Shown piece by piece: positions 2,253 through 44,688 of a DNA stretch of 56,553 bases (the stretch's first letter is position 1; each line of letters starts with the position of its first letter). The notes beneath the pieces are model-generated. The model saw nothing but the letters and a program-made list of their open reading frames with translations. It did not search any database and was not told the origin of the DNA. The position numbers were made by a program, and so were the translations under genes. Origin of the DNA: Minisyncoccota bacterium (GTDB lineage: Bacteria; Patescibacteriota; Minisyncoccia; Phycocordibacterales; UBA9973); the NCBI GenBank assembly GCA_035403785.1, contig DAONFW010000006.1, forward strand, positions 1 through 56,553. Reading direction: 5' to 3'.

Positions 2253-2296
2253 GCAGATTATTGCATTTTTACTAATTTTGTATTAATATATAAAAC

Positions 2297-2455
2297 ATGT
2301 CACAAGATAAACTTATAAAACTTGCTTGCGGAACTTGTAAGAGAATTAATTACTGGTCAAGAAAGAACAAGAAAACTGTAACTCAAAAAATTGAGCTTAA
2401 GAAGTACTGCAAATGGTGCAAGAAAAACACAAAACACAAGGAAATCAAGAAATAA
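2297..2455 (+). CDS. rpmG: 50S ribosomal protein L33
   Basis: 52-aa ORF below the track cutoff: MSQDKLIKLACGTCKRINYWSRKNKKTVTQKIELKKYCKWCKKNTKHKEIKK. It has the CxxC...CxxC zinc-ribbon L33 pattern. A TAATAT -10 sits 7 nt before the ATG. Confidence 0.85.
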   Translation: MSQDKLIKLACGTCKRINYWSRKNKKTVTQKIELKKYCKWCKKNTKHKEIKK

Positions 2456-2491
2456 TCTAGTCTTTATTTTTATTTATTTATTGATATAATG

Positions 2492-2529
2492 GAACTTGCA
2501 GTAAATGTTTGCTGCAAGTTCTTTTTATT
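2492..2529 (+). terminator. intrinsic terminator after rpmG
   Basis: 10-bp stem GAACTTGCAG (2492-2501) / CTGCAAGTTC (2512-2521) followed by TTTTTATT. Confidence 0.7.
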
Positions 2530-2617
2530 GGATCTGTTTTTTCGAAGCCAGATCCATTGAGAGACGAGTTAATTTTTATTTTCACGTCTCGTTATTCCGG
2601 CTTTCGAGCCGGGATAT

Positions 2618-2707: not shown

Positions 2708-4633
2708 ATGGATAAAAATTCACGCAAAAAATACGTTAGAAGAAAAATCCAAGATATAAAAAGTAGGGCAAAACACGCTGCTGTTTATTCAAAAAAACTT
2801 ATTTCTCCGGTTTTTGGTTTTGGATTAAAAATGTCTGGTTTAATTTTATTTGGAATTTTATTGATTTTAGGAATTGTTAAGATTTTCTTTTTTGAAATAA
2901 AATATCAAGACAAGTTTTATCCGGGTGTCTATGTAGCAAATGAAAAAGTTGGAGGTTTAACATATGATGAGGCCGTAATACGTTTTAAGGAAAAGGTAGA
3001 AAATTTTAGAGCTAACGGAGTTAATGTCGAGATTGAAAACTCGCAGGGACTAAAAAAGAAAATAAATGTTCCAACTTTGACTGCTGGTTTGGCTGCGGAT
3101 AATACGATTGAATATTTTTTAATAAATGGATGGGAAAAGGATTTACAAAAAGCCTATCAGTGGGGACGTGGAAGCAGTGTTTTTCGTGATGTTTGGCAAC
3201 AAATAATTCTAATATTTACTAATAAAAATTTTGATTTTTCAAATTCTGTTCAAAAAGAAGCTGTTAGTTCTTTGCTTGAAAGTGAATTGAATAGTTTTTT
3301 AACAAAAAGCAAATCAGCTGAATTTTCTTTTGTCAAAAATAAACTAGTTATTTCTAAAGAGCAAGTCGGGGAGATTTTAAACAAAGAAGAAATTCTAAAT
3401 ATTTTGGCAAAAAAAGTTTCGCAGTTTGATACAGATATAGTTTATTTTAAAACCCAAGAAGATATTTCTGTTGTTAAAAAAGTTGATTTGGAAAAACACG
3501 CAACTTTTGTAGAAAATTTTGGAAATAAAATCAATTTCTCGTTTTTTTATAATGGTTTCAGGTGGTATGTAAAAGGAGCCAAATTTGTTAATTGGCTTAC
3601 TATTAACAGTAATAGTGAAAATTTAAATAGCGGTGAAAAAGAAATTTATTTAAATAAAAATAAATTAGAAAGTTATTTTTCTGAGAATATTGATAGACTA
3701 ATAGAAAATCCTCCAAGAAATAGTAGATTTGAAATAAGAAATGGAAAAATATTTGAGCTTGTTTCAAGCAAAAAAGGTAATGCGATAGATATTGAAAAAG
3801 TAGCTGAAGAAATAAATAAAATAATTAGTGATTCTAAAAACAATCTAGATCTTCAGAAAAAAACTTTTGATATACATATCGAGACAATTCAAATTGAGCC
3901 AAAAATAACCAAAGATTTGTTGTTAAAATATGAAATCAAAGATTTGATAGGTCGCGCTTCTACAAGTTTTGATGGAAGTAGTGCTGACCGCGAACATAAT
4001 ATAAGAACTGGAGTTTCTGCGATAAACGGAATTTTACTCGCGCCTGGTGAGGAGTTTTCTACTGTAAATTCTATTGGTCATGTTTCAGAGAAAGAAGGAT
4101 ATAGAAAAGAAACTGTAATTAAACAGAATAAGACAACGAAAGAATTTGGCGGTGGTTTGTGTCAGGTTGCGACAACTTTGTTTAGATTAGCTTTGAATAC
4201 TGGTCTGCCCATTACAGAAAGAATCAATCATCGTTTTACTGTGCCTTATTACGATCCGCCAGGTTTAGACGCAACTATTTATGGACCACATCCTGATCTG
4301 CGTTTTGTGAATGATACAGGAAATTATGTTTTGTTGCAGGCCAGAGTAGAAGGTAAAAAAATAATTATGGAATTTTACGGTAGAAAAGATGGTAGAATCG
4401 CAGAAGTTTCTAAACCAGTTGAATCAAATTGGATACCAGCACCAGCAACAAAATATATACCGACAAATTATCTTTCTGTTGGTCAGGTTAAATGTTCTGA
4501 AACACCACATTCAGGTTTAACCACTGATGTTTTGTATACAGTTAAATATCCCGATGGTATAACAAAACAAAGAAATTTTAGAAGTATTTATCAACCATGG
4601 CAAAAAGTTTGCTTGATCGGAGTTAGTTATTAG
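2708..4633 (+). CDS. VanW/YoaR-like membrane-anchored protein
   Basis: N-terminal TM helix. The C-terminal region has a VanW-type signature (GGGLCQVATTLFRLALNTGLPITERINH). Confidence 0.75.
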   Translation: MDKNSRKKYVRRKIQDIKSRAKHAAVYSKKLISPVFGFGLKMSGLILFGILLILGIVKIFFFEIKYQDKFYPGVYVANEKVGGLTYDEAVIRFKEKVENFRANGVNVEIENSQGLKKKINVPTLTAGLAADNTIEYFLINGWEKDLQKAYQWGRGSSVFRDVWQQIILIFTNKNFDFSNSVQKEAVSSLLESELNSFLTKSKSAEFSFVKNKLVISKEQVGEILNKEEILNILAKKVSQFDTDIVYFKTQEDISVVKKVDLEKHATFVENFGNKINFSFFYNGFRWYVKGAKFVNWLTINSNSENLNSGEKEIYLNKNKLESYFSENIDRLIENPPRNSRFEIRNGKIFELVSSKKGNAIDIEKVAEEINKIISDSKNNLDLQKKTFDIHIETIQIEPKITKDLLLKYEIKDLIGRASTSFDGSSADREHNIRTGVSAINGILLAPGEEFSTVNSIGHVSEKEGYRKETVIKQNKTTKEFGGGLCQVATTLFRLALNTGLPITERINHRFTVPYYDPPGLDATIYGPHPDLRFVNDTGNYVLLQARVEGKKIIMEFYGRKDGRIAEVSKPVESNWIPAPATKYIPTNYLSVGQVKCSETPHSGLTTDVLYTVKYPDGITKQRNFRSIYQPWQKVCLIGVSY

Positions 4634-5306: not shown

Positions 5307-5354
5307 ATTAAAATAATAGCACAAATTATGTGAAAAGTCAATAAATACAAGCTT

Positions 5355-5582
5355 TTAATTCCAGATTAAATCCCAGAACTTTTTGAGAGATTTTTTTGTA
5401 TCTTTTTCTATTTTTTCAAATCTTTTACCCCACTTTGATTCTTTTTCCAAAAATAACCAAATTAGCACAAAAAAACCTATAATTAAGCCAGCCAGAACCG
5501 CCCATTTGAATATAGTAAAGCCAAAAATCAATAAAATAGCTAAATAAACAACTATTGGTATTAAATAATCATACAACATCAT
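5355..5582 (-). CDS. small two-TM membrane protein, unknown function
   Basis: 75-aa ORF with two clear hydrophobic helices and a basic C-terminus. Confidence 0.5.
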   Translation of the reverse strand: MMLYDYLIPIVVYLAILLIFGFTIFKWAVLAGLIIGFFVLIWLFLEKESKWGKRFEKIEKDTKKSLKKFWDLIWN

Positions 5583-5643
5583 GGTTACTTATTATTTTAA
5601 CACAAATTTGCTTTGTTTTGAACAATACTGCTATACTAAAAAT

Positions 5644-6036
5644 ATGAGTGTAGAAGAATTTCCACCAATTAAAAAAGATAAAAAACCAGAGGAAGAAAAT
5701 GCAAAGGTCATGTTACTCCATGCTTTTAATCAATTTATTGAATTTAAAACATTTATCAAACTTATCAGAAAGAGTGAAGAAACTGGTAATAAAAGCGGAC
5801 TTTCTTATAGTGAAATAAAGAAAATATTAAAAAATACAGAATTTAAAAACTTAGAAGAAATTACAGAGCATGTTTTTTCTTTGGAAGAACTTGAAAAAAT
5901 AAGACCGGGAATTGGAGAAATATATAAAACATTAGTAAAAGAATTTAAAAGACCAAATTTAAAATTGGAGGAACTGGAATATTATATATCCATGGTAGAA
6001 GATTTGATTAAGGATGTACAGAGTTATAAAATTTAA
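5644..6036 (+). CDS. hypothetical protein
   Basis: ORF with an ATG 6 nt downstream of TGCTATACT (5629-5637). Charged, helical-looking sequence with no recognisable family. Confidence 0.5.
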   Translation: MSVEEFPPIKKDKKPEEENAKVMLLHAFNQFIEFKTFIKLIRKSEETGNKSGLSYSEIKKILKNTEFKNLEEITEHVFSLEELEKIRPGIGEIYKTLVKEFKRPNLKLEELEYYISMVEDLIKDVQSYKI

Positions 6037-38909: not shown

Positions 38910-39353
38910 ATGAAAGTTATATTTCTAAAAGATGTACCAAGAGTAGGGAAGAAGCATGACGTCAAAGAAATTAATGACGGTTACGCTATCAATTTTTTAT
39001 TTCCTAGAAAGTTAGCAGAAATGGCTACGCCTTCCAATATCGCTGCGTTAGAAAGAAGAAAAAAAGAAGTAGAAATTACCAAAGAAATTCAAGACGAACT
39101 ACTCGATAAAAATTTGGAAGAAATAAAAAATAAAACTATCACAATCAGAGGCAAAGCCAACGACAAAGGTAGCCTGTTTTCTGCTATCAAACAAAAAGAT
39201 TTGATAGATGAATTAAAAAAAGAACACAGAATAGATATCAAAGAAGAATTTATTTTGTTAGATAAACCAATCAAAGAAATTGGTGAATATGATATTCAAA
39301 TTAAAATAAAAAATAAGACCGGTTCGTTTAAGCTGATAGTGGAGAAAATATAA
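38910..39353 (+). CDS. rplI: 50S ribosomal protein L9
   Basis: MKVIFLKDV...[25 protein letters not shown]-terminal L9 signature, 147 aa. Confidence 0.92.
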
Positions 39354-39360
39354 AAATATC

Positions 39361-40242
39361 ATGCAGAAACTAAAAAAATATAAAAACAAAAGATATTTTT
39401 TCTTTATTTTTGTTTTTATTTCAGTCTTTCCAATTTTTACTTTTGCTCATCAACCTAGAATTCCAGATTCTAACCAGACGGTAGTACTAGATCCAGAAAT
39501 TTCAAAAGCATATTATGCAAAACTTTCCGGCGATCCTCAGGTTTATACTATTTCTTCTGATAAAGCTTTTAATCTATACGTGAACATTTTAGTGCCAGAT
39601 ATCGCTGATCAGAAAAAAGATGTAAATCTCGCGCTTTTCAAAAAGAACGGCCAGAGTTCTACGGCCGACGAGCTTTTGACTATTTTTGATAACGGCAATA
39701 ATAATTGGGAAAAATTTTTTGAGCCATTTGGATATGATAGTTATTGGAAAGGCGCAGAATACAGACAGGCAGTTCCAGCCGGAAATTACGAAATCAGAAT
39801 TTGGAGTTCAAACAATGATAGTAAATATGTTTTAGCTGTAGGAGAAAAAGAATCTTTTCCACTGAAAGAAACTTTACGCACAGTGAAACTCATACCTGAG
39901 ATAAAAAAGAATTTTTTTAACGAATCTCCGATTAATTTCATTCTTTCACCAATAGGTTGGGGATTTGTTTTGGTTGTGTTTATTCTAGCTTTCATAATAG
40001 GATTTATTTTCAGACTGTTAGTAAGAAAAATAGCAAAAAGGAAAAACAGAACCACAACTAGAAATATTGGAAAAACAGATCGTATTTTCCGAGCAATTTT
40101 AGGATTAGCTTTATTCTTGATAGCTATAAGTACTTCCTGGAGCCCAATTTTGCTGTTTTTAGCCGGTTTTATGCTGTTTGAAGCTATTTTCTCATGGTGT
40201 GGATTCTATGCTGCTGTAGGTAAAAACACGTGTCCGAGATAA
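39361..40242 (+). CDS. secreted domain fused to YgaP-like (DUF2892) membrane domain
   Basis: Signal peptide and a ~190-aa extracytoplasmic domain, followed by TM helices ending ...FSWCGFYAAVGKNTCP, typical of DUF2892. Confidence 0.5.
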   Translation: MQKLKKYKNKRYFFFIFVFISVFPIFTFAHQPRIPDSNQTVVLDPEISKAYYAKLSGDPQVYTISSDKAFNLYVNILVPDIADQKKDVNLALFKKNGQSSTADELLTIFDNGNNNWEKFFEPFGYDSYWKGAEYRQAVPAGNYEIRIWSSNNDSKYVLAVGEKESFPLKETLRTVKLIPEIKKNFFNESPINFILSPIGWGFVLVVFILAFIIGFIFRLLVRKIAKRKNRTTTRNIGKTDRIFRAILGLALFLIAISTSWSPILLFLAGFMLFEAIFSWCGFYAAVGKNTCPR

Positions 40243-40261
40243 TATTATAAAATATAAAAAT

Positions 40262-40525
40262 ATGAACGAAATAGAACAAATAAAAAAAGACATAGCAGAA
40301 ATCAAAGAAAGAAATGCCCGTGTAGAGCAAGACAAGGCATGGGAGACAAGTTTGGTAAGAAAGATAGTAATCGCAATAATGACTTATATTGTTATTGTTT
40401 TGTTTTTCTTTTTTGCAGGATTTTCTAGTCCATTCATAAATGCAATAGTTCCGACTATTGGTTTTTTACTTTCTACTCTTTCAATATCGTTTGCTAGAAA
40501 GATTTGGATAAAAATGAAACAATAA
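40262..40525 (+). CDS. small membrane protein
   Basis: 87 aa with a charged N-terminal helix and two TM helices. Confidence 0.45.
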   Translation: MNEIEQIKKDIAEIKERNARVEQDKAWETSLVRKIVIAIMTYIVIVLFFFFAGFSSPFINAIVPTIGFLLSTLSISFARKIWIKMKQ

Positions 40526-40569
40526 AAATATAAAATAATTTTGTATTAAAAAAATTATCTAGTGAAAAA

Positions 40570-41076
40570 ATGAAAAAATCCATTAACGTTTCTGACAAAA
40601 TGCAAAAGAATTACAAATATCAGCTTGTAGAGCCGATGGGAAAAAACTTTGATTCTAGATTCAAACCAGATCTCACACCGAAACAAATGCTCAAGCTTGG
40701 GATTTTTGGTGGTAAATATATGACTGATTGTCAGAAAGAATTTCCAAAAGATTGGTATAAAGGCGTAAAACTTTCTCCGAAATTTCACGATCCAAAATTA
40801 AATTATTTCAAAGTTAATGCCAGCCAGCCACTTTCTGTGTGGCGCAAAAAAGGCTGGATTTACAAAGAAGATCCAAGAGGCTGGTTCCAATGGTATTGCA
40901 GATATTATATGGGCCGTAGAATACAAAAAGAAGATGACAGGCAAATCAAGCGCTGGCTGGCAATTCGCAGACATATAGCGCAAATTAAGAAAAATTGTAG
41001 GACAGGAGACGAATTTTGTCGTCCGGTACAAAGGCAGGCGGTTTTACACTGGGCTTACGATAGTCGAAAATTATAA
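40570..41076 (+). CDS. conserved-looking Trp/Arg-rich hypothetical protein
   Basis: 168-aa soluble ORF with a distinctive RGWFQWYCRYYMGRR...IKRW block. I cannot name the family. Confidence 0.55.
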   Translation: MKKSINVSDKMQKNYKYQLVEPMGKNFDSRFKPDLTPKQMLKLGIFGGKYMTDCQKEFPKDWYKGVKLSPKFHDPKLNYFKVNASQPLSVWRKKGWIYKEDPRGWFQWYCRYYMGRRIQKEDDRQIKRWLAIRRHIAQIKKNCRTGDEFCRPVQRQAVLHWAYDSRKL

Positions 41077-41096
41077 TCTTCTGATATAATTTTAAT

Positions 41097-41882
41097 ATGA
41101 GAACAAAAACAATTTTAATCATAATCGCAATACTTTTGATAGTAGTGAGCGGCGCTTTGTATGTGGAAAATAGAAAAAATCACCAACAAAGTGAAAATGA
41201 AACTTTATTAAATCAAAACCAAACACAAAACAATTCTGATATATCACAAACTGAACAACCTGATGTTGTCGCTCGTTTTGTTTGTCCAACTGGCGCTTAT
41301 ATCGACGCAAAATTTTACAATAAAGAACCAAACAATTCTGTCGATATTACTTTGAGCGACGGAAGAAATTATAAATTGCCACAAGTTATTTCCGCTTCTG
41401 GCGCAAGATATGCAAATAGTGACGAAAGTTTTGTTTTCTGGAATAAAGGCGACATGGCTTTTACTTTAGAAAATGACAAAATTGCACTAAATGAATGTTA
41501 TACAAAAAGTCAGGAAGATAGAAGCACGACAAGCACAAATATTGTTGGTGGAGACAGAGACGCTCATGGATGTATCGGTAGCGCAAGATATTCTTGGTGC
41601 GCAGTAAAAAATAAATGTTTAAGAATTTGGGAAGAAAAATGTGAAGTAACTAATTCTTCTGACGCTAAAATAATTTTAGACGCAACAAACAAAAAAGTTT
41701 CTTGCGAGAGTAATGGGGGAGTGTGGTATTCTGATAATAATACTTGTGAAATAAATTCTCTTTCTGAAACTTCTTGTATTGCAAAAGGTGGAGAATTTAA
41801 TTCTTGCGCTTCCGCTTGCCGTCATGATCCAAAAGCAGAAATCTGCACAATGCAGTGCGTTTTGACTTGTACTTTTAAATAG
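41097..41882 (+). CDS. membrane-anchored MliC-like domain protein with Cys-rich C-terminal module
   Basis: TM anchor. The segment ARFVCPTGAYIDAKFYN...ITLSDGRNYKLPQVISASGARYANSDESFVFWNKGD matches the MliC (lysozyme-inhibitor) pattern. It is followed by 16 Cys in ~120 aa. Confidence 0.6.
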   Translation: MRTKTILIIIAILLIVVSGALYVENRKNHQQSENETLLNQNQTQNNSDISQTEQPDVVARFVCPTGAYIDAKFYNKEPNNSVDITLSDGRNYKLPQVISASGARYANSDESFVFWNKGDMAFTLENDKIALNECYTKSQEDRSTTSTNIVGGDRDAHGCIGSARYSWCAVKNKCLRIWEEKCEVTNSSDAKIILDATNKKVSCESNGGVWYSDNNTCEINSLSETSCIAKGGEFNSCASACRHDPKAEICTMQCVLTCTFK

Positions 41883-41928
41883 ATAAATAAGTTAGTAAAT
41901 TAAAAGTTTAATTAAAAAAAATAAATAT

Positions 41929-42327
41929 ATGAGCAATGCAACTATTTGGTATTCGCAATTAATAAAACCAACTTGGGCACCGCCACCTTGGTTGTTTGGA
42001 CCTGTTTGGACAATACTTTACATAATAATTCTAATCTCTTTCGGTACAGTCCTTTTGAGATTTTTTGAAGGGAAATTGTCTAAAAAAATAATTTTGCCGT
42101 TTATTTTAAACTTAATATTCAATTTTATTTTCAGTCCAGTTCAGTTTGTTTTACAAAATAATATTCTAGCGGCGATAGATATTGTTTTAATCCTTGGCAC
42201 GTTGATCTGGGCAATGATCGCAATTTATCCAAAAATGAAATGGGTAGCTTATGTAAATATTCCTTATCTAATTTGGGTTTCTTTCGCTACTGTTTTGCAA
42301 TTTACAGTAACTTTTTTAAACATATAA
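41929..42327 (+). CDS. tspO: TspO/MBR family tryptophan-rich membrane protein
   Basis: WYSQLIKPTWAPPPWLFGPVWTILY signature. Shorter than usual at 132 aa. Confidence 0.75.
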   Translation: MSNATIWYSQLIKPTWAPPPWLFGPVWTILYIIILISFGTVLLRFFEGKLSKKIILPFILNLIFNFIFSPVQFVLQNNILAAIDIVLILGTLIWAMIAIYPKMKWVAYVNIPYLIWVSFATVLQFTVTFLNI

Positions 42328-42336
42328 TTTAAAAAT

Positions 42337-42771
42337 ATGAAAAAATCTAAAATTTCTTTATTGATATTTTCTCTAGCTGGATTTTTATTTTCAGGTTATA
42401 TGAGCAATATAAAAATCTTCTCAAACACCTGCGCATTCGGAGAAACTTGCCCGTTGTTTTTAGGAATTCCTGCTTGTTATTACGGTTTTACAATCTTCAC
42501 TTTGATACTTATCTTCTCCATAATTTTTGCATTCAAGAAGGCGAGTATTGGCTCCATAACTAATTCGATTTTTTACACTGCGTTAGTTGGCGTATTCTTT
42601 TCCGGATATTTTGCTATGCAAGAATTTCCAATGTTACTCAAAAATGGATTTAGCACATACAAATTTGGTTTACCAACTTGTATAATGGGATTTCTTTTCT
42701 TTGTAATAATTTTTATTATTTCAATATTTTTGAAAAAAGAAATAAAAAATCAAAAAATTATTTTAGAATAA
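42337..42771 (+). CDS. four-TM membrane protein with Cys pair in first loop
   Basis: Hydrophobic profile plus a CAFGETC...PAC segment. It is VKOR/DsbB-like only loosely, with no second CxxC. Confidence 0.45.
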   Translation: MKKSKISLLIFSLAGFLFSGYMSNIKIFSNTCAFGETCPLFLGIPACYYGFTIFTLILIFSIIFAFKKASIGSITNSIFYTALVGVFFSGYFAMQEFPMLLKNGFSTYKFGLPTCIMGFLFFVIIFIISIFLKKEIKNQKIILE

Positions 42772-42844
42772 CTATACTATATTGCTTTATATAAATTTTT
42801 TTGTTTTAATTAACTACAGAACAACCCTAAAAAACTTAATAAAG

Positions 42845-43219
42845 ATGAGTAGAACAAAACTGGTTCGAACAAAAGGACATCACAGAAGGCCTAGCTCATT
42901 AAAAGGAACCGATTCAAAAGCCAACATCTCTTATGTAGAACCTAAGCTGCATGAAAATTGGCACCTATTATTCGGAAACCTTAACGCTTACCAAATCTGT
43001 GAACTTTTACAAAAGGAACCGGAAATGCCTAAAGGAATTTTTGTAACTTGTGAATTTATTAACGGTAATCCCGTTGGAGTTGAAGGGAAACATTATTGTA
43101 AAAACAAAAACAAAAGAAGAATTGCCTGGAAAATTCTTTTTGGAGAAATGCCGTTCAGTGAAATAATAAGTTACATTAACAATGTATGGCTGGATCCGGC
43201 TTACCATTTTTATTTTTAG
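42845..43219 (+). CDS. small HNH-like (beta-beta-alpha-Me) motif protein
   Basis: GHHRRPSSLKG-x6-N-x9-LHENWHLLF resembles the HH..P.S.GG...N....H...H nuclease motif. Own GC-rich terminator. Less AT-rich than its neighbours. Confidence 0.45.
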   Translation: MSRTKLVRTKGHHRRPSSLKGTDSKANISYVEPKLHENWHLLFGNLNAYQICELLQKEPEMPKGIFVTCEFINGNPVGVEGKHYCKNKNKRRIAWKILFGEMPFSEIISYINNVWLDPAYHFYF

Positions 43220-43234
43220 ATTTTTTATAAAAAG

Positions 43235-43269
43235 CCCGTTGGATTTTATTCTAACGGGTTATTTTTTAT
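43235..43269 (+). terminator. intrinsic terminator after the HNH-like gene
   Basis: CCCGTT (43235-43240) / AACGGG (43253-43258) followed by TTATTTTTT. Confidence 0.7.
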
Positions 43270-43274
43270 AAACT

Positions 43275-43583
43275 AAAAACGGACGGCCCCATAAGGAAAC
43301 CGTCCTAATCGTAATAAGATGAGCATTCTGACTGTGGGGGATTCAAACCCTTGCTGAGTTTTTTTCAGCTCCATTTTCTGATAGTCTCTTTCCTCAAAAG
43401 AATATTTTGAGGAGGAACTGAATTAAAAAGTTTTTTGAATTTCTCTCGTCCTCCATAAAACAATTTAATTTTAATCAGACGTTCTACCCGTTACTAGGAA
43501 GCGTCTCTGTGATTAAAAATCAGAGGGAAATCGACAACTGTTATCCTTGAACTAATTCAGGTGCAGAATGCTAAAAAACGACT
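43275..43583 (-). ncRNA. unclassified structured RNA candidate (~310 nt)
   Basis: ORF-free gap. Minus-strand promoter TTGACT (43618-43613), 17-nt spacer, TATTAT (43595-43590). Terminator GGACGG/CCGTCC (43305-43281) plus U5. A 9-bp long-range helix joins 43572-43564 with 43330-43322, and there are several internal hairpins. Confidence 0.6.
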
Positions 43584-43623
43584 ATTTATATAATATCATA
43601 AGTATTATCAAAAGTCAATATAT

Positions 43624-43650
43624 TAAAAAATCCCCAGAAAATTCTGAGGA
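43624..43650 (-). terminator. intrinsic terminator after rpmA
   Basis: Minus strand UCCUCAGA / UCUGGGGA (one G-U, which would be a C-A mismatch on the plus strand) followed by UUUUUU. Confidence 0.7.
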
Positions 43651-43666
43651 CTTTTTAATTTATTTT

Positions 43667-43939
43667 TTATATAACGCTTACAGTTTTCTTTGTTGAGACT
43701 TTGTTGTCGTATGAAGTCTTTCTCTTTGAACCAAACTTTACCGTTCCATCTTTTAGAGCGAATAGGGTATGATCTTTTCCTGTTCCAACATTTTTTCCTG
43801 CCAAGATAGCTGTACCTCTCTGACGAACTATAACAGAACCGGTTTGAGCCTTCTGGCCGTCATAAAGCTTAGTACCTAGGTACTTTGGTTGTGAGTCTCT
43901 TAAGTTTTTGGCTGTTCCGCCGGCTTTTCTATGTGCCAT
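43667..43939 (-). CDS. rpmA: 50S ribosomal protein L27
   Basis: [29 protein letters not shown]... canonical L27 N-terminus, 90 aa. No rplU is adjacent. Confidence 0.95.
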
Positions 43940-44396: not shown

Positions 44397-44645
44397 AAGT
44401 CGATATTTTTTAAAGGGAAGAGGCCGATTTGAATTATAATACTACGTCGCACAATATATCTTTGCGACATAGCCTTATACAAATAAGCTTTATTCTACAA
44501 TAAAACTCAAAAATACAGCCACACCTCTCCAGCCTATTTAGTAATTGCTTTACTAAATAAAAAGAATATACTGAAAAAAGAAATAGAATTTTGAAAAAGA
44601 AATAACAAAAACATAATTCTCCCCTAAAACAAAACATAAAAAAAT

Positions 44646-44676
44646 AAAAAGCCGTTTTTCACAACGGCTTTTTTTA
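44646..44676. terminator. bidirectional intrinsic terminator
   Basis: AAAAA-GCCGTT (44651-44656) / AACGGC (44663-44668)-TTTTTTT. It lies directly downstream of the 44689-45048 gene. Confidence 0.75.
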
Positions 44677-44688
44677 TTTATATTTAAT

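Follow-up and report, generated by a model that had tools for sequence, protein, structure and literature searches.

To our knowledge, almost nothing is known about the non-coding RNAs of the candidate-phyla (Patescibacteria) bacteria. Described systems that bear comparison with the locus examined here are 6S RNA (ssrS), the orphan species-specific small RNAs of bacteria, the HNH genes of phages and the Y RNA YrlA. The 6S RNAs of close relatives can be aligned and their gene is not patchily distributed among close relatives, and free-standing HNH homing endonuclease genes occur in the tRNA gene regions of T4- and T5-like phages. YrlA is a bacterial Y RNA that mimics tRNA and is bound by Rsr, the Ro60 orthologue; a GNCGAAG motif has been linked to Rsr binding, and the junction of two adjacent tRNAs can imitate the YrlA-type pattern (PMC4201824). 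The RNase P RNAs of candidate phyla may also score below the Rfam thresholds (PMC8172020). Here, we examine a predicted RNA unit downstream of rpmA in a stretch of 56 553 nt from a Minisyncoccota bacterium of Paceibacteria/Nomurabacteria type (contig DAONFW010000006.1 of assembly GCA_035403785.1), the whole of which is referred to as the window. An earlier sequence-only reading had proposed that this site holds a structured RNA gene, with its own promoter and terminator, that belongs to no recognisable class. The layout of the unit recurs at the same site in three related species, with bodies that cannot be aligned, and we give an even chance to its being an independently transcribed, lineage-restricted and fast-evolving non-coding RNA (ncRNA) of about 300 nt.

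A promoter-to-terminator unit downstream of rpmA

The gap between positions 43220 and 43666 (447 nt), which has rpmA (minus strand) on one side and an HNH-like open reading frame (ORF, plus strand) on the other, is longer than any other part of the window without a gene or known RNA; the other seeming gaps contain rpmG, tRNAs or a gene of 308 aa. No gene is called in it in any public contig, and tblastn and tblastx gave no pseudogene signal. An rplI pseudogene was considered for the gap and rejected, as rplI is intact at 38910–39353 and both of these searches were empty there. The view that the gap has no credible ORF stands; the accompanying count of 19 codons for the longest minus-strand reading was wrong, as frames of 33 aa (from an ATG, 43374–43273) and 32 aa (from a TTG) are present. 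That one of these two frames is a small protein gene is hardly credible: neither has a Shine–Dalgarno sequence at a working distance (a GAGG lies 17 nt before the ATG), and the 33 aa frame crosses the terminator stem of the unit and is frameshifted by a 1 nt deletion in another strain of the species (L001).

Upstream of the unit, rpmA (43667–43939, minus strand) is a 90 aa ORF for ribosomal protein L27, identified by the Pfam Ribosomal_L27 match of identical proteins. Its intrinsic terminator (43625–43655, minus strand), which is missing from the list of a consensus terminator scan and was seen by direct reading of the sequence, consists of a hairpin (43650–43631) and a U-run (43630–43625), at the site where a separate terminator had been described, and is conserved in four species. 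It is followed on the same strand by a sigma-70-type promoter (43590–43618) in which TTGACT (43618–43613) and TATTAT (43595–43590), matching the consensus at 10 of 12 positions, are separated by a 17 nt spacer; these boxes were correctly placed by the sequence-only reading, to which we add a TG-extended −10. Next come a predicted RNA body of 279 nt (43306–43584, minus strand), based on the fold and its pair probabilities, and the intrinsic terminator of the unit (43275–43305). The terminator scan recovered the latter as previously proposed, with a stem (43305–43281) of 10 pairs, 6 of them G–C, ahead of GUUUUU, a U-run that only the minus strand has. Elsewhere in the window, at 5313–5341 on the minus strand, the −35 word TTGACTTTT was seen once more, again with a TATTAT −10 box (TTGACTTTTCACATAATTTGTGCTATTAT).

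Units at the same site in related species

Three other Paceibacteria species, represented by the loci L084, L117 and L007, carry a unit at the same site after rpmA. L084, for which L112 is the other flank, comes from a sister species with 84 % nucleotide identity in the flanks; its near-identical rpmA terminator is followed by TTGACT-16-TATAAT and then by different sequence until the contig ends 292 nt after rpmA. In L117, which was found via the HNH-like protein, the order is rplI, HNH-like gene, a 372 nt gap and rpmA, and the gap contains an rpmA terminator similar to that of the window, TTGACT-16-TATAAT with a TG-extended −10, a body of about 187 nt closed by 12 and 13 bp helices rich in G·U pairs, and a 15 bp terminator; the unit lies at 5425–5652 on the minus strand and has a folding z-score of −6.1 overall. 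L007, which is most closely related to L117, also has a similar rpmA terminator and shows the same layout directly between rpmA and rplI, with no HNH gene (unit at 3318–3545, plus strand). A terminator of the unit's own is present in L117 and L007; the L084 contig is too short to tell. The four terminator–promoter segments align, with the TTGACT −35 box and a TATAAT-type −10 box at the same place. The earlier view of the unit as free-standing, and as neither a 3′ untranslated region of rpmA nor a protein gene, is supported.

The contigs of L084 (end at 1916) and L112 (end at 3221) both stop at the cassette, the former from the rpmA side and the latter 3 nt after the stop codon of a VKOR-like gene. 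As coverage is low (0.85x for L084), both stops may be due to chance and not to a repeat.

Downstream of the promoter, the four sequences differ. The bodies were defined from promoter to terminator, with a boundary that is partly assumed for L084 where the contig is cut, and range in size from 170 to 280 nt. Unlike the bodies, the flanking genes of the four species are 75–84 % identical. Comparison of the bodies with tblastx was empty. Phages and plasmids, searched with blastn, and viral contigs, scanned three times for exact words, gave no match either. In all four bodies, however, the minimum-energy fold pairs both ends. The end-to-end closure amounts to 9 bp in the window, 8 bp in L084, 13 bp in L117 and 8 bp in L007, lengths that were reached by 4, 6, 0 and 10 of 150 shuffles, respectively, and a Fisher combination of the four closures gives P ~3e-4. 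The fold of L117 reaches −53.6 kcal/mol (z=−3.3) in the sense direction versus −22.7 kcal/mol (z=−0.1) in antisense, a predicted strand asymmetry that points to structure at the level of the RNA, not to a DNA palindrome.

Within the species, L002 and L003 are identical to the window, and L001 (98 % identical) keeps the RNA unit and lacks the HNH-like gene and its terminator. In L001, a U>C change turns a U·G pair into C–G and a G>A change in the terminator turns a G·U pair into A–U; two changes fall in an internal loop, one produces a C·A mismatch at a helix end, and the nucleotide lost, which frameshifts the sole ATG ORF, is an A of an unpaired A-run. In the promoter, a change to TACTAT weakens the −10 box. 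These differences fit the predicted fold, in a number far too small for a test. Beyond this species, nhmmer with the window RNA recovered no copy from the 80 rpmA loci of related genomes and none elsewhere in the window. The window has a single copy, and related loci amounting to about 680 kb have none. When a metagenome was scanned with a word from the rpmA terminator, a poorly chosen pattern, all 24 matches were unrelated terminators and no relative was recovered.

Predicted fold of the window RNA

The body of 279 nt is predicted to fold as a three-way junction. The 9 bp long-range helix that had been drawn between 43572–43564 and 43330–43322 has a pair probability of 0.99. We add to it an outer 7 bp helix (43584–43578 with 43312–43306, probability 0.97), which brings together the predicted start of the transcript and the bases that immediately precede the terminator. 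The hairpin proposed between CCUCAAAA and UUUUGAGG is likewise part of the minimum-energy fold (probability 0.95). The hairpin UCCUCAAAA-UAUUC-UUUUGAGGA at 43391–43413 (minus strand, pair probability 0.95), which contains GAGGAAAG, resembles the stem of the rpmA terminator, forming a direct repeat (D3) with 43636–43650. The other hairpin of the sequence-only reading, GGAGGA with UCCUCC, did not survive: it lies outside the minimum-energy fold, and the U>C change of L001 would place an A·C mismatch in the middle of the helix.

Over the entire 316 nt, the folding z-score is −4.4 for the minus strand versus −3.0 for the plus strand, and terminator-like sites are enriched in the window (7 seen, 1.0 expected). 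The region exceeds chance only moderately.

Comparison with known RNA classes

At the gathering score, Rfam 15 found only three tRNAs in the whole window. At E<=10, the 601 nt of the region gave no RNase P RNA, tmRNA, signal recognition particle (SRP) RNA or 6S RNA and no Y RNA, HEARO, group I intron or large ornate RNA, and the regions of L084, L117 and L007 gave no family, only noise driven by their terminators. The RNA is therefore without a recognisable class, as had been claimed. A search at E<=10 would omit RNase P scores of 5–15 bits, the range used in PMC8172020, and the Rfam test was not relied on alone because candidate-phyla RNase P RNAs fall below the thresholds (PMC8172020). ARAGORN found no tmRNA or tRNA in the window region, L117 or L007.

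The case for a highly divergent housekeeping RNA missed by Rfam draws on that property of candidate-phyla RNase P RNAs, on the position of GAGGAAAG after a hairpin, as at P3/P4 of RNase P RNA, and on the pairing of the ends together with a T-loop-like hairpin, GGG-UUUGAAU-CCC, near the 3′ end. GAGGAAAG is indeed present two-thirds of the way in, as had been noted, and this places it about 200 nt into the 279 nt body, as the 3′ strand of a local hairpin and without a P4 partner strand. The P4 helix of RNase P RNA, in which GAGGAAAGUCC from the 5′ part pairs with ACAGAA..GGCUUA from the 3′ part, was not found, and by eye GAGGAAAG can pair with the 3′ region over at most 4 bp (GACU/AGUC). With respect to tmRNA, the 5′ end is UAGUCGU and not GGG, there is no CCA and no plausible tag frame, the third pair of the outer 7 bp helix is G·U, and the 9 bp helix plus 16 nt separate this outer helix from the T-like hairpin. 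For SRP RNA, neither the helix 8 motif (a GGAA tetraloop with AGCA/GGAA loops) nor a match to the Rfam models was found; an SRP-like reading of UCCGGAAGGAAG in L117 was rejected, as this is the tip of the perfect 15 bp terminator stem, which has no internal loops. What decides the matter is that no conserved blocks were seen among close relatives: housekeeping RNAs would be easily alignable in a sister species with 84 % identical flanks, where the unit is unalignable, and most relatives have nothing at this site. These comparisons rule out RNase P RNA, tmRNA, SRP RNA and 6S RNA far more firmly than Rfam alone, and we consider a divergent member of these classes very improbable.

6S RNA is nevertheless of interest for its layout, as it too is the product of a free-standing gene (about 180–200 nt) and has ends that form a long closing stem, and the L117 RNA can be drawn, in shape only, as a closing stem, a bubble with small hairpins and a long inner stem. 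Unlike 6S RNA, the window RNA has no Rfam 6S match, a body of 279 nt and a three-way junction. The orphan species-specific small RNAs of bacteria, which have their own promoter, an intrinsic terminator and a fast turnover, resemble the unit in being autonomous and intergenic and in not being conserved beyond close relatives. In contrast to these, the unit, at about 300 nt, exceeds the usual length of base-pairing small RNAs, and it keeps its position, promoter and architecture across species while the body is replaced. We know of no target or chaperone in this phylum.

Other classes fared no better. A HEARO or IscB omega RNA lies upstream of an IscB gene (RuvC plus HNH, about 400–500 aa) and on its strand; the neighbour here is 124 aa long, has an HNH-like motif only, is convergent with the unit and is missing from L001 and L007, and Rfam gave no match. 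The non-coding RNA of a retron has flanking inverted repeats and a reverse transcriptase gene directly downstream, whereas here a terminator closes the unit and the convergent gene beyond it encodes no reverse transcriptase. With regard to a tRNA gene, with or without an intron, only partial arms were found, and only in the relatives, and there was no group I intron match. Of the marks of a miniature inverted-repeat element, inverted repeats are present; no flanking target-site duplication was seen by eye, there is the single copy in the window with none in the related loci, and the fold of L117 is strand-specific.

tRNA-like parts and YrlA

The cassettes of the relatives contain pieces of tRNA. 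In L007, a canonical T-arm (GCGG-UUCGAGU-CCGC) is followed directly by a 7 bp loop-closed stem (CAAGUAG-CAAAA-CUGCUUG, third pair G·U) and then by UA. In L117, UUGCUUG-UA-GCUC-AGAAGGAA-GAGC-A corresponds to the 5′ strand of an acceptor stem, U8 and A9, and a textbook D-arm. L084 has AACGG-AUCGAUU-CCGUU, and the window has only the degenerate T-like hairpin given above. A tRNA covariance model built from eight local tRNAs was run unfiltered on 20.6 kb, and three of its four best matches fell inside the L007, L117 and L084 cassettes, none of them individually significant (E=2–5). Neither L117 nor L007 folds as a tRNA.

As in YrlA, the 5′ and 3′ ends of these RNAs pair into a stem and the cassettes of the relatives bear tRNA-like arms inside; the order of T-arm, closed acceptor-like stem and UA in L007 is also YrlA-like, and GNCGAAG occurs in both L007 (GCCGAAGG) and L117 (GUCGAAGG). 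The differences are considerable. None of the four RNAs has the full set of T-arm, acceptor stem and D-arm, as L007 lacks a D-arm after UA and L117 has UA and a D-arm but no T-arm, and GNCGAAG in L117 is near the 3′ end, not the 5′ end. The cassette RNAs, at 170–280 nt, also have no Rfam match and are mutually unalignable. No TROVE domain was detected in the ten of the larger window proteins that were scanned, and no rsr gene adjoins the unit in any locus, the neighbours being rpmA, the HNH-like gene, genes for VKOR-like, TspO and MliC proteins, and rplI. Because the junction of two adjacent tRNAs can imitate the YrlA pattern, decayed tRNA genes stay a live explanation.

The HNH-like neighbour

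The HNH-like ORF (42845–43219, plus strand) encodes 124 aa from its ATG, with the motif HHRRPxSxxG..NIS..H..WH.LFGN, and is followed by its own terminator (43233–43260, plus strand). The family comprises 8 clusters in 5.8 billion proteins, with a conserved C-terminal half. The protein has no Pfam match, one weak PHROG HNH match and a weak match to colicin E7 (E=0.5). The ORF and its terminator form a strain indel (about 42767–43262), absent in L001, and between the window and L117 the HNH-like DNA is 88 % identical at the nucleotide level compared to 75–79 % in the flanks, which indicates a probable recent transfer and agrees with the earlier impression that the gene is foreign.

The gene adjoins the RNA unit in the window and L117, and the unit occurs without it in L001 and L007. 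Distant homologues adjoin tRNA genes (L120 and L121). Although the HNH-like ORF and the promoter are each conserved between the window and L117, the DNA that separates them is unrelated, and the complementarity of the RNA to the HNH mRNA was no better than that of shuffles, as judged by a crude unrestricted duplex method. We treat it as a putative separate mobile gene that favours the neighbourhood of RNA genes. In this it resembles the HNH genes of T4- and T5-like phages, which are likewise small HNH-motif ORFs, present or absent between strains, with DNA more conserved than the flanks and, here, homologues beside tRNA genes and tRNA-like units. Unlike the phage genes, it resides in a cellular candidate-phyla genome, has no Pfam model and encodes a nuclease activity that is putative.

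Other features of the window

The 4.3 kb between rplI and rpmA in the window consist of membrane protein genes, the HNH-like gene and the RNA unit. The membrane and periplasmic gene block (about 3.4 kb, 39361–42771) includes genes for YgaP-like, MliC, TspO and VKOR-like proteins and ORFs of 87 and 168 aa, and was found only in the window species and the sister species (L112).

An apparent gap of 365 nt before tRNA-Trp (2253–2617, plus strand) is rpmG, which encodes L33 (about 51 aa) and fell below the ORF cut-off; rpmG has a 14-pair terminator at 2491–2522. A second convergent gap, 44397–44688 on the minus strand (292 nt), folds more strongly (z=−6.6) than the gap 43220–43666. It contains GGGGAG and an ATG at 44614 that opens a hydrophobic ORF of 26 aa ending at 44534. 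In the sister species, conservation of this gap is limited to roughly the first 60 nt.

Interpretation

From the sequence features and their recurrence we infer the following for transcription, stability and mode of action. Transcription would start at about 43583 from the extended −10 sigma-70 promoter just after the rpmA terminator and would stop at the hairpin 43305–43281. The first 7 nt of the RNA would pair with the 7 nt before the terminator, with the 9 bp helix stacked inside, and both ends would be locked into a rod bearing several hairpins; closed ends and a terminator hairpin would give a stable RNA. Together with its counterparts downstream of rpmA in the three other Paceibacteria species, the unit would form a small group of cassettes that keep position, promoter, size and end closure while the sequence is replaced completely. 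Because the shape is kept and the sequence is not, the RNA would be likelier to act by way of a protein, mimicking tRNA or serving as a decoy, or in a genetic conflict than by pairing with a conserved target. A more specific proposal, which we regard as distinctly improbable, is a hypervariable tRNA-mimicking ncRNA locus in genetic conflict. Its product would protect against a nuclease directed at tRNA, as a decoy or an immunity RNA, or would itself be cut by such a nuclease, for which the small HNH-like family, found repeatedly beside the unit and beside tRNA genes, could be the source; the body would be replaced between species, with promoter, closure and terminator kept.

A number of results weigh against an RNA gene. 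Whether scoring was strict or permissive, alignments between the four bodies were no better than those of shuffles. A covariance model of the window RNA found nothing in 548 kb of related loci and L117, and UCAGAA is the only 6-mer common to all four bodies, where a shared 6-mer is not significant overall (P=0.11). In nearly all of the 80 related genome loci, rplI (encoding L9) is convergent and lies 0–70 nt after rpmA, and a further relative, P0056, is from a species without the unit. The pattern TTGAC-N17-19-TANNAT occurs 3 times in the window, with 2.9 expected. Without its terminator, the window body folds with z=−2.85 on the minus strand and −2.77 on the plus strand and so shows no strand asymmetry; the region ranks about 24th among 1124 GC-corrected sliding windows of 300 nt (top ~2 %), and its GC content (0.35–0.38) is near background and differs from that of the window tRNAs (0.49–0.58). 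The tRNA-model matches described above lack significance individually, and there were none in the window copy. The original proposal of a structured RNA gene is thus supported in part: position, promoter and architecture recur, and a conserved structured RNA is unsupported, as the bodies are unalignable. Lack of conservation in relatives, which had been named as part of what would count against the gene, is found for the sequence and is not found for position, promoter or architecture.

Many of these results would be expected if the region were a non-functional relic or spacer at a hotspot of rearrangement and insertion between rpmA and rplI, perhaps a decayed tRNA gene or operon. Such a tRNA locus may have arrived with mobile DNA or have been disrupted by it, and the hairpins would be at most terminators for two converging transcription units. 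The sequence is not conserved in a sister species despite 84 % identity of the flanks, most relatives have no unit, the GC content is that of the background and the window copy folds equally on both strands. In addition, the minus-strand hairpins coincide with plus-strand terminator-like sites (43334–43354 and 43353–43369), one hairpin resembles a copy of the rpmA terminator, and other gaps of the genome fold even better. The pieces of tRNA are also partial, with an acceptor 5′ strand and D-arm in L117 and a T-arm and acceptor strands in L007, neither of which folds as a tRNA. A relic does not readily account for a near-consensus TTGACT/TATAAT promoter kept at the same spot in four species with everything downstream of it replaced, nor for the recurrence of strong terminators and end-to-end closure, nor for the strong strand asymmetry in L117, and we judge it to be the main rival, a serious possibility that is on the unlikely side. 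That the RNA region belongs to an HNH-linked mobile cassette, as homing target, immunity determinant or cargo, or is an inverted-repeat element in its own right, appears improbable. In its favour, the HNH-like gene adjoins the unit in the window and L117 even though its other neighbours differ, and it exceeds the flanks in DNA conservation. Its distant homologues lie beside tRNA genes, and tRNA-like arms occur in the cassettes of the relatives. The window body also has inverted repeats at its ends, and the distribution among relatives is patchy. However, L001 and L007 have the unit without the HNH-like gene, and the region from that gene to the promoter is wholly different between the window and L117, which co-conversion by homing would not produce. 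There is also one copy in the 56 kb window and none in the ~680 kb of related loci, no target-site duplication visible beside the inverted repeats, no special complementarity of the RNA to the HNH mRNA, and no match among viral contigs, phages or plasmids.

Significance

A new conserved structured RNA would have been a more striking finding, yet this one is not an artefact. Candidate-phyla genomes are compact, and a non-coding unit of 300–450 nt that is kept stands out in them. If the unit is a relic, it shows that a promoter, a terminator and hairpins in AT-rich DNA are insufficient to call an RNA gene, and it marks the rplI–rpmA junction as an insertion hotspot. If it is expressed as the fast-evolving ncRNA proposed here, it would offer a rare example of a promoter, a position and a fold architecture that outlast the replacement of the sequence between sister species, and such persistence of architecture without sequence suggests a role based on shape or conflict, not on base pairing. 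The tRNA-like arms, together with a mobile HNH-like gene that is also found beside tRNA genes, provide a concrete and testable lead, and were the proposal of a tRNA-mimicking locus in genetic conflict to prove true, these cassettes would represent a new fast-evolving class of RNA defined by its architecture.

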